This document shows positions 45,196 through 47,951 of a stretch of DNA of 50,704 bases, in pieces. The notes under the pieces are model-generated. The model searched no databases and was not told where the DNA came from. It was given only the letters and a program-made list of their open reading frames with translations. The position numbers and the translations under genes are program-made. Source of the stretch: Candidatus Omnitrophota bacterium. GTDB taxonomy: Bacteria > Omnitrophota > Gorgyraeia > Gygaellales > Profunditerraquicolaceae. The first letter of the stretch is position 1; each line of letters starts with the position of its first letter. The stretch lies in NCBI GenBank assembly GCA_030693145.1, contig JAUYBI010000021.1, positions 1 to 50,704 of the forward strand, in the 5' to 3' direction.

Positions 45196-45806
45196 TGCAG
45201 CAGCTGGTAGTGGCTACAAAAAATAAAAAAAAGTTATCCGAGATAAAAGATATTTTAAAGGGCATACATTTAAAGCTGCTTTCTTTGGATGCCTATAAAG
45301 ATGTTCCGCTGGTAACTGAAAATGGTAAAACTTTTCAAGAGAATGCCATAAAAAAAGCGGTAACCTTGGCGCGTTTTACCGGCCAGCTTTGCCTGGGTGA
45401 GGATTCAGGGCTATGTGTTGATGCTCTAAATGGCGCGCCGGGGATTTATTCGGCGCGTTTCTCAGGCAGAGATAAGAGTGATATTAAGAATAACCTTAAA
45501 TTATTGAGATTATTAAAAGATGTGTTTGCGGTAGAAAGAAGAGCGCATTATGTTTGCGCCGTGGCTTTGGCTGATAAGCGCGGGCTAATTGGGGTGGTGG
45601 AGGGGAATTGTTCCGGTTTGATTGCTTTTGAGCCCGGAGGCAGCGCAGGTTTTGGTTATGACCCGTTATTCTATATTCCTAAATATAAAAAGACCTTTGC
45701 TCAGCTGGGAGAAAAGATCAAGCATAAAATGAGCCACCGCTACCACGCTTTAAAAAAGGCCAAGCGGATTATCGAGAAATATATTGTTAAGAGTAAGTGC
45801 TGTTGA
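45195..45806 (+). CDS. rdgB: Non-canonical purine NTP pyrophosphatase (RdgB/HAM1)
   Basis: VVATKNKKKLSE, EDSGL, GFGYDP, SHR motifs. Confidence 0.9.
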   Translation: MQQLVVATKNKKKLSEIKDILKGIHLKLLSLDAYKDVPLVTENGKTFQENAIKKAVTLARFTGQLCLGEDSGLCVDALNGAPGIYSARFSGRDKSDIKNNLKLLRLLKDVFAVERRAHYVCAVALADKRGLIGVVEGNCSGLIAFEPGGSAGFGYDPLFYIPKYKKTFAQLGEKIKHKMSHRYHALKKAKRIIEKYIVKSKCC

Positions 45807-45812
45807 TATAAT
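45784..45812 (+). promoter_or_regulatory. Sigma70-type promoter TTGTTA-17 nt-TATAAT feeding the tRNA-Pro/GIY-YIG locus
   Basis: -35 at 45784-45789 (inside the rdgB 3' end) and -10 at 45807-45812. Confidence 0.45.
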
Positions 45813-45837
45813 TAATCTTTCGTTATAGGTTACAAAA

Positions 45838-45898
45838 CGGGGAGTGGCTCAGTTTGGCTAGAGCGTCCGCCATTAAGGCGTTGGCGGGCGCTTGCTTT
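45838..45898 (+). pseudogene. 5' fragment of a tRNA-Pro gene (acceptor 5' strand, D arm, 22-nt foreign hairpin, anticodon-stem 5' strand), ending inside the anticodon loop
   Basis: 45838-45865 is identical to 46152-46179; hairpin TCCGCCA-TTAAGGCGT-TGGCGG at 45866-45887; GCG-CTTGC-TTT at 45888-45898. Confidence 0.8.
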
Positions 45899-45905
45899 TA
45901 GAATT

Positions 45906-46148
45906 ATGTTTGTTTACGTATTAAGAAGCGAAAAAGATAAAAGTTTTTATATAGGCTCAACTAAAAATGTAGAGCAGAGGTTTAATGGCCATAATAGAGG
46001 ACAAAGCTTATCTACAAAGTTAAAAAGACCTTGGGTATTAGCCAGAGTTGAAGAATACGAGAGTGATTCTTTAGCGCTAAAGCGGGAAAAGTTTTTGAAA
46101 AGCGCTAAAGGAAGAGGGATTGTAAGGAACCTATGTTCTTTTAGATAA
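45906..46148 (+). CDS. Minimal GIY-YIG nuclease-domain protein (80 aa, YhbQ/YazA-like)
   Basis: FVYVLRS...FYIGST...R...H...LKREKFLK pattern (GIY-YIG core with conserved Arg and Glu); no SD. Confidence 0.75.
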   Translation: MFVYVLRSEKDKSFYIGSTKNVEQRFNGHNRGQSLSTKLKRPWVLARVEEYESDSLALKREKFLKSAKGRGIVRNLCSFR

Positions 46149-46151
46149 TAG

Positions 46152-46226
46152 CGGGGAGTGGCTCAGTTTGGCTAGAGCGCTTGCTTTGGGAGCAAGAGGC
46201 CGTGAGTTCAAATCTCACCTCCCCGA
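46152..46226 (+). tRNA. tRNA-Pro(UGG), intact 75 nt
   Basis: Manual cloverleaf: CGGGGAG/CTCCCCG acceptor, D arm GCTC-AGTTTGGCTA-GAGC, anticodon arm CTTGC-TTTGGGA-GCAAG with G37, T arm GTGAG-TTCAAAT-CTCAC, discriminator A; no encoded CCA. Confidence 0.9.
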
Positions 46227-46243
46227 CATGTTAACACCCTGTA

Positions 46244-46356
46244 TTTGGTTAGAGCGTCCGCCATTAAGGCGTTGGCGGACGCCCGCCAAAGTATCAGTGG
46301 CGGGCGCTTGCTTTGGGAGCAAGAGGCCGTGAGTTCAAATCTCACCTCCCCGACCA
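46244..46356 (+). pseudogene. 3' fragment of a tRNA-Pro gene starting in the D loop, with a 47-nt two-hairpin insertion between the D and anticodon arms; complete 3' part with encoded CCA
   Basis: TTTGGtTAGAGCG at 46244-46256; hairpins at 46257-46278 and 46279-46303; 46307-46353 is identical to 46180-46226; CCA at 46354-46356. Confidence 0.8.
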
Positions 46357-46390
46357 GATTTGACACTGTGATTTAAGGAAATAAATTTTG

Positions 46391-47773
46391 ATGAACAAAA
46401 AAATCGTAACTTTAATTTTGGTTACAAGTATAATTCTTGTTGCCGGGCTTGTTCGTTGGGCCTCAGCAGAAGAACCATCTGAAAAGCTGCCAATTTCGAT
46501 TCCGACAGATAAAAATGAAGCACAAGAAAGGCTTTCGCAGGTTAAGGTTGCCTCGCTTTATGAAAATATAACCGATGGGGTTGCCATTGGTAGAAGTATA
46601 GACGATACGATTGCCATTCTAAAAGAGACAAAGACCGATTTAATATTTCGCGGATTTTGGAAGTGGGCGCCGGTTGTTGATTCGCCGGACAATATTTCTT
46701 CGGAATTGCTTAAGCTAACCGGGGATAAAAATCTTACCCCAAAGCAGGTTTCCGAGAATTTGAGAAAAAGCGGCCATTATTACCAAGAGCTGAAACGATG
46801 GATTTTTGCCATAAAGAAAGAGCTGCCTGACATTATTTTTGTTGGCGCAATTCCAGCTCAAACCCTTGCTCGGATTGAATTGAACCCTATAACAGGCAGG
46901 GTTTATACAACTGAGAAAACCTGGCAGATGGCGCTTGACCCTGCAAAATGGAGTATAGAACGAAATAGCAAACCAGTCACTAAGGAGCAATTTCAGGAAT
47001 GGTTTTATGGCATCCATCCATACGGAGGGAAATTAGAAAAATATGATTGGCGTAAAGTTTCAGCCTATTTTCCCGATATAACAAACCCTGACTTTCAAGA
47101 GCTTCTTTTGAGCTGGGCAAAAAAGCAGATAGATTCCGGTGCAGATGCTATCTGGATAGATATGCTTTATCATCAGGTAACACGCCTTGCCCAAATCACA
47201 GGGGACATGAATCATCCTTCAGTAAAAGAATCCGTTGCCGCCGCCTCAAAAATAGTGGATGAAATCCACAGATACGGACAATCCAGGGGAAAATACATCT
47301 ACGTGGGAAGCTGGCCCGGGCCTTTTGTTTTAGCGGAAGCTGCAAATCGAGAATTTCCCTATTCCCCGCCTGATGTGGATTTTATCACTATATCTCCATT
47401 GAACAAGGACGTCATGGATAAGAAACTGGATAATGTAAGATGGGGAAAAATTATTTCAATTATAAAAAATAAATTTAGGGGTATCCCAATTTTTTCATTC
47501 ATAGACTGGGCATTTGATGAGTCACAGACAGTAATTTTCTCTCAGAAATTAAGTAAGGAAGAGCAAAGGGGAGTGCTAAAGACATTTGATGAGTCTTTTG
47601 CAAAAATGGGAGTAAACTTTGTTTATCCTATCCATGGCGGCTATATGGGAAGGGGAGAAATCACCACCCATCTTGCCTGGAGCAAATACAGGATTTATGA
47701 CAGCTTCGCTCCGGAATTTGATACCTATGAAACAATAAAGGAACTTGCTTTAAGGAAAGCGGTAAAATATTAG
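46391..47773 (+). CDS. Secreted hypothetical protein (~460 aa), possibly TIM-barrel glycosidase-like
   Basis: Signal peptide MNKKIVTLILVTSIILVAGLVRWASA; the segment ADAIWIDML is weakly glycosidase-like; family not recognised. Confidence 0.6.
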   Translation: MNKKIVTLILVTSIILVAGLVRWASAEEPSEKLPISIPTDKNEAQERLSQVKVASLYENITDGVAIGRSIDDTIAILKETKTDLIFRGFWKWAPVVDSPDNISSELLKLTGDKNLTPKQVSENLRKSGHYYQELKRWIFAIKKELPDIIFVGAIPAQTLARIELNPITGRVYTTEKTWQMALDPAKWSIERNSKPVTKEQFQEWFYGIHPYGGKLEKYDWRKVSAYFPDITNPDFQELLLSWAKKQIDSGADAIWIDMLYHQVTRLAQITGDMNHPSVKESVAAASKIVDEIHRYGQSRGKYIYVGSWPGPFVLAEAANREFPYSPPDVDFITISPLNKDVMDKKLDNVRWGKIISIIKNKFRGIPIFSFIDWAFDESQTVIFSQKLSKEEQRGVLKTFDESFAKMGVNFVYPIHGGYMGRGEITTHLAWSKYRIYDSFAPEFDTYETIKELALRKAVKY

Positions 47774-47841
47774 CTTTTATATAACCTTTGAATTGAACGC
47801 GTTTTTATCGTATATTAGATAATTGAGATATCAAAATTAAT

Positions 47842-47915
47842 GCGCCTGTAGCTCAAATGGATAGAGCACCTGCCTTCTAAGCCGGTTGTTGGCCGTTCGA
47901 TTCGGCCCAGGCGCA
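47842..47915 (+). tRNA. tRNA-Arg(UCU)
   Basis: Manual cloverleaf: GCGCCTG/CAGGCGC acceptor, anticodon loop CTTCTAA, T arm GGCCG-TTCGATT-CGGCC; one U:C mismatch in the anticodon stem. Confidence 0.85.
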
Positions 47916-47951
47916 TTAGATTGACGATAAAACTAGGCAAACTTTAATTTT

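Follow-up and report, generated by a model that had tools for sequence, protein, structure and literature searches.

We analysed a 50,704-nt stretch of DNA from a Candidatus Omnitrophota bacterium (assembly GCA_030693145.1, contig JAUYBI010000021.1, positions 1 to 50,704), hereafter the window, and focus on its tRNA-Pro locus, where fragments of tRNA-Pro flank a minimal GIY-YIG open reading frame (ORF) and an intact tRNA-Pro. The locus belongs to a gene order that is conserved among relatives: QueF, fumarase, RNase PH, RdgB, tRNA-Pro, tRNA-Arg, DUF748 and tRNA-His. All features of the split locus lie on the forward strand. An earlier note on this DNA had listed a first tRNA fragment, a 22-nt hairpin, the ORF, the intact tRNA and a third copy with an encoded CCA, and our analysis confirms these parts and their coordinates to the base.

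The native tRNA-Pro promoter is assigned to a promoter-like site at 45784–45812 (TTGTTA-17-TATAAT with an extended −10 TG, 10 of 12 consensus positions), which overlaps the 3′ end of rdgB; a TTGATATAAT block also precedes the plain tRNA-Pro at empty sites, that is, at loci of relatives with a single tRNA-Pro and no ORF. Fragment A follows. Its first part (45838–45865) comprises 28 nt that correspond to tRNA-Pro positions 1–26 and are 100% identical to 46152–46179 in the intact copy. It is contiguous with a native leader common to L013 (L-numbers denote relatives' loci in the genomes and metagenomes that we compared with the window) and appears to be the remnant of the resident tRNA-Pro 5′ end. 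Next comes a truncated hairpin module of 25 nt (45866–45890), in which the 5′ arm and loop of one hairpin, H1, are fused to the 3′ arm of a second, H2. The second part of fragment A (45891–45898, CTTGCTTT), identified by repeat alignment, covers tRNA-Pro positions 27–34, and homology to tRNA-Pro stops at 45898, inside the anticodon loop, after GCG-CTTGC-TTT.

Seven nucleotides separate the end of fragment A from the start of the GIY-YIG ORF (45906–46148), which encodes 80 aa and has no Shine-Dalgarno sequence. Its stop codon lies 3 nt before the 5′ end of the intact tRNA-Pro(UGG) (46152–46227; ARAGORN, and 69 bits to the Rfam tRNA model), which belongs to an allele that we call AG-type and lacks an encoded CCA. 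We interpret this tRNA as the functional copy that travels with the ORF. Directly 3′ of it stands not the native flank but a foreign 16-nt linker (46228–46243, TGTTAAC...TGTA) that is conserved with L001. Fragment B then begins in the D loop: its first part (46244–46256) covers the D loop and the 3′ strand of the D stem (positions 16–26) with one mismatch, and its starting point, TTTGG, is identical in L001, L016 and L024. A full 50-nt double-hairpin module with H1 and H2 occupies 46257–46306, as judged from repeats, covariation and folding, and the second part of fragment B (46307–46356) runs through tRNA-Pro positions 27–76 and an encoded CCA (repeat alignment; Rfam, 32.5 bits). Beyond it, a TTGACA...TAAATT block resembles the flank found after tRNA-Pro in relatives, and this second part reads as the remnant of the resident tRNA-Pro 3′ end. 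The sequence GCGCTTGCTTT is present three times across the locus, at 45888, 46177 and 46304.

Fragments A and B overlap in tRNA positions 16–34 and do not abut. An Rfam scan of 45500–46700 at E ≤ 1 returned tRNA matches only, with none for the hairpins or for a ribozyme. Given this result and the overlapping instead of abutting fragments, we ruled out a group I intron in the tRNA gene.

The 80-aa protein matches Pfam GIY-YIG (PF01541) over residues 2–70 with 63.2 bits against a cut-off of 22.6 (E = 2.8e-17), which bears out the earlier description of the ORF as a GIY-YIG gene. Residues Y4, Y15, G17, R25, H29, N30 and E61 are invariant among 14 homologues. The AlphaFold2 (AF2) model has a pLDDT of 94.1, with strands at residues 2–8, 14–19 and 43–50 and helices at 22–30, 35–38, 54–65 and 67–78; both the conserved catalytic residues and the β-β-α-α-β-α fold of GIY-YIG proteins are thus present. 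By sequence, the nearest solved structures are the UPF0213 proteins BH0048 and EF2693 (1zg2, 1ywl; E = 1.9e-9), followed by SLX1 (E = 3e-6 to 1e-4), and I-TevI reaches only 0.009. Foldseek gives a probability of 1.0 to UPF0213 and Slx1 and 0.87 to I-TevI, and the fold comparison with Slx1 (7cq3) gives a TM of 0.68 and an rmsd of 1.7 Å over 71 columns.

The protein is therefore not of the Seg/I-TevI type: its 80 residues leave out a C-terminal DNA-binding domain, the TIGR01453 model for group I intron endonucleases scores 24.2 bits, below its cut-off of 56.05, and a PHROGs search gave no match. By these comparisons and the model it is a UPF0213/Slx1-like GIY-YIG protein that consists of the catalytic domain only. 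The kinship to T4 Seg proteins and I-TevI put forward in the earlier note survives at the level of the superfamily, and the nearest relatives are UPF0213 and Slx1. The protein is a putative nuclease, whose activity and cleavage target we infer. Database proteins of the family often carry 20–50 extra N-terminal residues, for example P0003 (116 aa) and P0010 (108 aa); in L008 they stem from a mis-called start, from which translation would pass through the tRNA fragment and hairpins that lie upstream, and the true start is the conserved MFVY/MYVY. IMG/VR contained no relatives of the family, and 50,697 phage records gave only two weak matches. On this near-absence and the PHROGs result we rejected a phage origin or vector.

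Homologues of the ORF come from Candidatus Omnitrophota metagenome-assembled genomes (MAGs) and from metagenomes. The same order of 5′ tRNA fragment with hairpins, ORF and intact tRNA recurs in L001, L002, L003/L004, L012, L013 and L014. The split-locus structure was assembled independently in NCBI, JGI and ENA data, which speaks against the assembly collapse that the earlier note had kept as an alternative. Two of the relatives' assemblies have breaks of their own: the L018 contig ends inside a tRNA copy, and L012 contains a run of N.

With the window RdgB as query we retrieved 80 syntenic metagenome loci, in 66 of which the tRNA-Pro after rdgB was readable. A single plain tRNA-Pro without a GIY-YIG ORF was found in 56 of the 66; nine carried a different GIY-YIG clade and one carried the clade of the window. 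Hairpins were present in 3/66 and never within an otherwise plain tRNA-Pro. On a neighbour-joining tree of rdgB the occupied loci are scattered (the window with L013; L012; L001; L003/L004/L124; L014; L016; L018; L024), and the nearest neighbours are empty in each case. As the earlier note had proposed, the unit of ORF and tRNA thus appears to be an insertion into a resident tRNA-Pro that is polymorphic for presence and absence. The single-tRNA sites that it suggested looking for in relatives do exist, so the structure is not one that all relatives share.

We also compared synonymous divergence (pS) between the ORF and rdgB. It was 0.43 versus 0.24 for the window and L013 and 0.41 versus 0.68 for the window and L001, a discordance in both directions among values (0.24–0.75) that are near saturation and come from only 80 codons. 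The discordance argues against simple vertical descent, in a way that is suggestive and not decisive. For the same reasons we do not take recent horizontal transfer to be shown by synonymous divergence.

The tRNA-Pro(UGG) at empty sites comes in two alleles. The common CG-type, found at about 40 empty loci, reads CGGGGCG...ACAGG (T arm)...CGCCCCG, and the rarer AG-type, found at the empty sites L089, L090, L097 and L094, reads CGGGGAG...CTTGC...GTGAG (T arm)...CTCCCCG. The intact tRNA that adjoins the ORF is AG-type in the window, L013, L012, L001, L003, L004, L024 and L002, that is, in 8 of the 10 occupied loci in which an intact tRNA-Pro was called. The AG-type accompanies the ORF even where the nearest empty relatives are CG-type. 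The 5′ strand of the upstream fragment is still CG-type in L001, L003 and L013. In L001 the T arm and acceptor strand of the last downstream fragment are CG-type as well, and the outer pieces therefore pair (CGGGGCG with CGCCCCG) around an AG-type tRNA. The AG-type tRNA of L001 would then be an imported gene that lies between fragments of the resident allele. Because the AG-type stands beside the ORF despite its different neighbours, and because the outer fragments in L001 are resident, the ORF and the replacement tRNA seem to move together.

Not every locus follows this pattern. In L014 the intact tRNA is of the local type (anticodon stem CAGCG) and the stretch after the hairpins reads CTTGC, a mismatch that indicates imported sequence with a shorter tract and a variable tract end. 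In L016, too, the intact tRNA is of the resident type, so that import of a whole tRNA by the element is not the rule at every locus. The earlier idea that the cassette brings its own functional tRNA thus fits the window, L001 and the other AG-type loci and fails for L014 and L016. A mirror arrangement, with the intact tRNA first, then the ORF and then a 3′ fragment with hairpins, occurs in L016 and in Flavobacteriia.

Taken together, the AG-type allele, L001 and L014 provide comparative evidence that a flanking marker is co-converted with the endonuclease gene. The junctions vary in position within homologous tRNA sequence and hence fit break-induced gene conversion, whereas a target duplication of fixed length does not fit. 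We also placed 90 distinct homology breakpoints on ARAGORN cloverleaf structures: 55 fell in loops or junctions and 35 in helices against a null of 43% helices, so that there was no significant enrichment, in a test that is crude because alignment ends are fuzzy. We therefore make no claim that the cloverleaf-folded tRNA gene is cut in a structure-specific manner.

The 22-nt hairpin at 45866–45887 is repeated at 46257–46278, and the 50.7-kb window holds no other copy with up to 3 mismatches (chance expectation, 0). In Omnitrophota the complete module is 50 nt long: H1 is TCCGCCA-N9-TGGCGGA (7-bp stem, 9-nt loop) and H2 has a 9-bp stem and a 9-nt loop. The hairpin in fragment A is a derivative of this module that has lost 25 nt between two TGGCGG repeats and is predicted to fold as one extended hairpin; the closest relative, L013, has the full 50-nt module where the window has the truncated one. 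Across 14 modules, 97.3% of cells are paired versus 31–56% when partner columns are slid. Five pairs have changed on both sides, with one H2 position showing GC, CG, AU and UA, and the covariation score is 0.27 versus 0.10 in shuffles, a value that none of 500 shuffles reached. Fragment B folded as DNA gives z = −4.4. The modules of the window and of L013 are identical except for 1 of 50 nt, although the ORFs of this pair differ at 43% of synonymous sites.

The hairpin also recurs outside Omnitrophota. Our survey of the family comprised 93 ORF copies, found with a protein profile, in 77 genomes of different species. We counted 62 occurrences of the motif [TA]CCGCC-N3-11-GGCGG[AT] in the 49.5 kb that lie no more than 300 nt from a family ORF, against one in the other 213 kb, an enrichment of about 270-fold, and a hairpin of the TCCGCC..GGCGGA type lies within 300 nt of 50 of the 93 copies. 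Short versions of 15 nt are found in Saccharibacteria (L045, TCCGCCTTTGGCGGA), Ignavibacteria (L043) and Flavobacterium (L058, TCCGCCTCGGCGGA).

The earlier note had assigned the hairpin to the resident tRNA-Pro. We assign it to the element instead, because it is absent from empty tRNA-Pro genes, because H2 covaries and because the motif is enriched near the ORFs, with which it travels across phyla. By these comparisons the hairpin is a conserved component of the element that co-travels with the nuclease gene and always lies within a dead tRNA copy. Since the protein has no DNA-binding domain and the stem sequence is conserved across phyla, the module is most likely the cognate nucleic-acid element that the nuclease recognises.

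In the same survey, 70 of the 93 ORF copies had an intact tRNA on the same strand, either at most 150 nt downstream (37) or at most 300 nt upstream (36). The adjoining tRNAs are those for Pro, His, Asp, Ser, Asn, Gly, Met, Phe, Val and Leu, and repeats of tRNA segments flank most of the copies. Tandem units occur in L002, L012, L025 (Sphingobacteriia, tRNA-Asp) and L058. The last of these, Flavobacterium covae AL-02-36 (CP067379.1, 1300–2650), has three tRNA-fMet genes in tandem. Behind them come three tandem units, in each of which a GIY-YIG ORF is joined by a 3′ fragment of tRNA-fMet that bears the TCCGCCTCGGCGGA hairpin, and by a terminator. When 1.84 billion cluster representatives were searched with the profile, 5,361 clusters at 50% identity matched with E ≤ 1e-10 and 21,476 with E ≤ 1e-3, most of them 79–130 aa long. 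The window cassette thus seems to be one member of a large and apparently undescribed family of elements associated with tRNA genes in many bacterial phyla. In the full-text literature searched, no account turned up of bacterial small GIY-YIG genes that occur with hairpins and tRNA fragments, an absence that is not proof of novelty.

We propose that a homing-type selfish cassette of about 0.4 kb, made of the hairpin module, the GIY-YIG gene and a replacement tRNA-Pro, invaded the resident tRNA-Pro(UGG), and we put the probability of this reading at roughly 0.6. The nuclease would break an unoccupied tRNA gene, and repair from the occupied allele would then copy in the hairpin module and the ORF together with adjacent tRNA sequence of variable length. 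Conserved tRNA sequence would serve as homology arms, with the conversion tract ending at variable points, and fragments A and B would be the dead, overlapping pieces of the resident gene that are left behind. Each event would regenerate an intact tRNA, either imported or chimeric, keeping the host viable, and repeated rounds of break and repair could give rise to the tandem units. The ORF would be transcribed from the tRNA promoter, which presumably serves the whole unit, and released by tRNA processing; we presume this because the ORF lacks both a promoter and a Shine-Dalgarno sequence and its stop codon is only 3 nt away from the tRNA 5′ end. The earlier note had likewise placed transcription at 45784–45812, which is plausible given the TTGTTA-17-TATAAT site there. 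Both co-transcription and repair-mediated homing are steps that we infer from the arrangement of the locus.

Several points weigh against homing. The patchy distribution could reflect many losses instead of many gains, and no vector-type relatives were found in the phage or viral collections. The ORF copies are old (pS 0.4–0.66) and under strong purifying selection, with ratios of nonsynonymous to synonymous divergence (dN/dS) of 0.04–0.19 between copies and no decayed copy among those examined, which would fit a host-beneficial gene as well. Nothing obvious protects the intact tRNA next to the ORF from the cassette's own nuclease. Homing also leaves the origin of the first fragment-ORF-tRNA arrangement unexplained, and it does not explain why the hairpins sit between positions 26 and 27, apart from the ORF junction in the tRNA-derived sequence (about position 34).

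The alternative that survives best, though we consider it unlikely, is a domesticated or host-beneficial nuclease that is linked to tRNA genes and acts, for example, in their amplification or repair, in the processing of tRNA or other RNA, or in protection against toxins or phage that target tRNA. The ORF would be kept in tRNA operons for co-expression, and the fragments and tandem units would be by-products of nuclease-stimulated recombination and not traces of a selfish invader. Such a gene would be expected to show the purifying selection and the lack of decayed copies just described, and the obligate same-strand linkage to tRNA across phyla could be read in the same way. SegB offers a precedent for adaptive tRNA amplification, and a prokaryotic Slx1-like GIY-YIG domain fused to the tRNA Gm18 methyltransferase TrmH suggests a role in RNA (PMC1564403). 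However, the ORF is absent from 56/66 close syntenic relatives and scattered on the host tree, and several GIY-YIG clades occupy different positions of one tRNA cluster. Classic signatures of invasion are seen as well, in a tRNA allele specific to the cassette and in displaced fragments of the resident gene. PADLOC gives no meaningful match (16 bits only), and on that result we ruled out a component of a defence system.

Less probable again is a hairpin-dependent transposon, in which the module would be a transposon end or a target-recognition structure and the GIY-YIG protein would act like a transposase, by an IS200/IS605-type route or with long target duplications. It would account for a conserved, covarying hairpin that is tightly linked to the ORF and, in the window and L001, for the hairpin modules that bracket the ORF-plus-tRNA unit. 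The hairpins and ORF are flanked by direct repeats of tRNA positions 1–26, and these also resemble a long target duplication, which is perfect over 28 nt in the window, L002, L004, L012 and L014. Yet the duplication varies in length from 17 to 43 nt, its two copies can be different alleles (L001, L003, L013), and most loci have hairpins on a single side. The GIY-YIG gene is the only ORF, with neither a HUH or DDE transposase nor a recombinase present, and we know of no strand-transfer chemistry for GIY-YIG enzymes. An IS200/IS605-type element in the strict sense is ruled out by the lack of HUH (TnpA) and, in most relatives, of subterminal hairpins at both ends. We likewise ruled out an integrase-mediated island that targets tRNA genes, the insert of about 0.4 kb holding only the 80-aa ORF and a tRNA.

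It is tempting to speculate that the hairpin and its flanking tRNA-derived sequence form a programmable specificity module for a minimal structure-specific nuclease, a nucleic-acid-guided form of homing, but we regard this as doubtful. The hairpin-bearing fragment, as RNA or as one DNA strand, would pair with the intact tRNA gene; the resulting branched or bulged-hairpin heteroduplex would be recognised through the TCCGCC..GGCGGA stem by the Slx1-like protein and then cut. A new tRNA target (Pro, His, Asp, Ser, Asn, Met or others) would need only that local tRNA sequence be captured around the hairpin.

Ordinary tandem duplication of tRNA-Pro followed by decay, or an assembly collapse, with an unrelated small ORF between the copies, is highly improbable and we set it aside: tRNA clusters do duplicate and MAG assemblies do break at such repeats (L018, L012), but one ordered structure was assembled independently from three sources, the linkage of ORF, hairpin and tRNA holds for at least 10 tRNA isotypes in many phyla, and empty sites are single-copy.

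The tRNA-Pro/Arg cluster of the window and its relatives holds further insertions. In the window, a 461-aa ORF with a signal-peptide-like N terminus (46388–47773) lies between the tRNA-Pro locus and tRNA-Arg, directly 3′ of a promoter-like block (46360–46387) that resembles the flank after tRNA-Pro in relatives. It has only a weak match to a GH31 TIM barrel (E = 0.0013). In most relatives, tRNA-Arg comes straight after tRNA-Pro. The tRNA-Arg of the window (47841–47916) is uninterrupted, whereas the anticodon loop of tRNA-Arg(UCU) in many relatives contains an insertion of about 200–300 nt (L013:2516–2890, L095:3284–3550, L012:1673–2056, L001:3643–3935, L002:1005–1266). This insertion resembles the Rfam group I intron model weakly but over the full length (19.8 bits, E = 0.01, below the gathering score of 50) and is probably a group I intron that is polymorphic among relatives.

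A structured, ORF-less insert of about 150 nt follows a duplicated 17-nt piece of the tRNA-Arg 5′ end (GCGCCTGTAGCTCAAAT) in L013:2338–2515, L089:3237–3405 and L002:822–1000, and is itself followed by a promoter-like block (TTGACAATTTAAAT) and the real tRNA-Arg. Rfam gave no match to it, and it would represent a second kind of element that generates tRNA fragments. At least two further clades of small GIY-YIG ORFs, GIYb and GIYc, occur elsewhere in the cluster (L003:2041–2292, L092:1389–1648, L018:1490–1753, L157:3375–3650). They have signatures of their own: palindromes derived from the tRNA-Pro 5′ end in L092 (TAACGGGGCGTGCCCCGTTA) and a 12-nt repeat of the tRNA-Arg 3′ end that flanks the ORF in L157. 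Between DUF748 and tRNA-His, L001:5445–5906 encodes a 153-aa ORF with a weak HNH_3 match, which may be another endonuclease of this tRNA cluster.

Long hairpins of the form TGGAGATGT..CGGGG..CCCCG..ACATCTCCACAAAA stand immediately 5′ of tRNA-Pro in L008:2440–2515, L008:2830–2895 and L003:2300–2410. They are duplicated on both sides of the ORF and contain pieces that resemble the tRNA 5′ acceptor strand. In L110:1322–1396 a hairpin (TCCCGCCAGTGCTTTAAGATTAGGCGGGA) interrupts the D loop of tRNA-Arg; tRNA-Pro is plain there, and the contig ends before a possible ORF.

If confirmed, homing of such cassettes would define a large, overlooked class of selfish elements in bacterial chromosomes and would offer, for the first time, a concrete function open to testing for the widespread small UPF0213/Slx1-like GIY-YIG proteins. 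It would also account for many tRNA-gene fragments and pseudo-tRNAs, for MAG contig breaks at tRNA loci and for mis-called N-terminal extensions of these ORFs, and it would imply a nuclease-driven process, analogous to that of SegB, by which tRNA alleles pass between species and are amplified. An 80-residue nuclease coupled to a cognate hairpin of 15–50 nt should interest those who build molecular tools. The homologous arrays in cultured Flavobacterium covae make the family tractable to experiment.

Among known systems, the nearest functional analogue is SegB of phages T4 and T6, a free-standing GIY-YIG homing endonuclease. SegB cleaves inside tRNA genes at a 27-bp site that includes the TψC motif, and it spreads with neighbouring tRNA genes by gene conversion (PMC2330249). 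Its gene is statistically over-represented beside tRNAs, it promotes tandem amplification of segB with tRNA in a manner that depends on recombination, and a C-terminally truncated variant has also been described (PMC13096335). As in the window, a GIY-YIG gene thus stands among tRNA genes, and tandem units are found in relatives of the window too. SegB, however, is a phage protein, whereas the window family consists of 80-aa UPF0213/Slx1-like proteins that are encoded on bacterial chromosomes and nearly absent from phage collections. The conserved hairpin module and the overlapping dead tRNA fragments are integral to the cassette, and we did not find them described for SegB.

The nearest structural analogue is found in the mORFs of fungal mitochondria, which encode LAGLIDADG or GIY-YIG endonucleases. 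They insert in an essential gene together with a foreign replacement end and leave the native end downstream as a dead duplicate, as in atp6 of Allomyces and atp6, atp9, cox2 and nad3 of Glomus (PMC3630166). Fragment A, the ORF, the intact tRNA and fragment B follow the same self-healing logic. The mORFs differ in being organellar, in targeting protein-coding genes and in replacing 3′ ends, whereas our cassette sits in a bacterial tRNA gene and carries a specific hairpin module; some loci have had the 5′ portion or the whole of the tRNA replaced, whereas L016 and Flavobacteriia have had the 3′ portion replaced.

In sequence and fold, the best matches are the UPF0213/COG2827 proteins and Slx1, which share the minimal domain. 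Slx1 works with Slx4 on branched DNA, and no partner is evident in the cassette. In the literature we found no function and no association with tRNA genes or hairpins described for the small UPF0213/Slx1-like proteins; a minimal prokaryotic Slx1-like GIY-YIG domain has been described without a tRNA-gene context (PMC1564403). Integrase-mediated elements that insert into tRNA genes, with an attP that includes the 3′ part of a tRNA, also restore an intact tRNA from sequence that they carry and leave a displaced partial copy as a direct repeat, but they differ from our cassette, which spans only about 0.4 kb without an integrase, has variable junctions and repeat lengths, and holds hairpins in its dead copy. 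What sets the cassette apart from SegB and the mORFs is a bacterial chromosomal location, a minimal UPF0213/Slx1-like nuclease, a conserved hairpin module and a range of targets that covers many tRNA isotypes.

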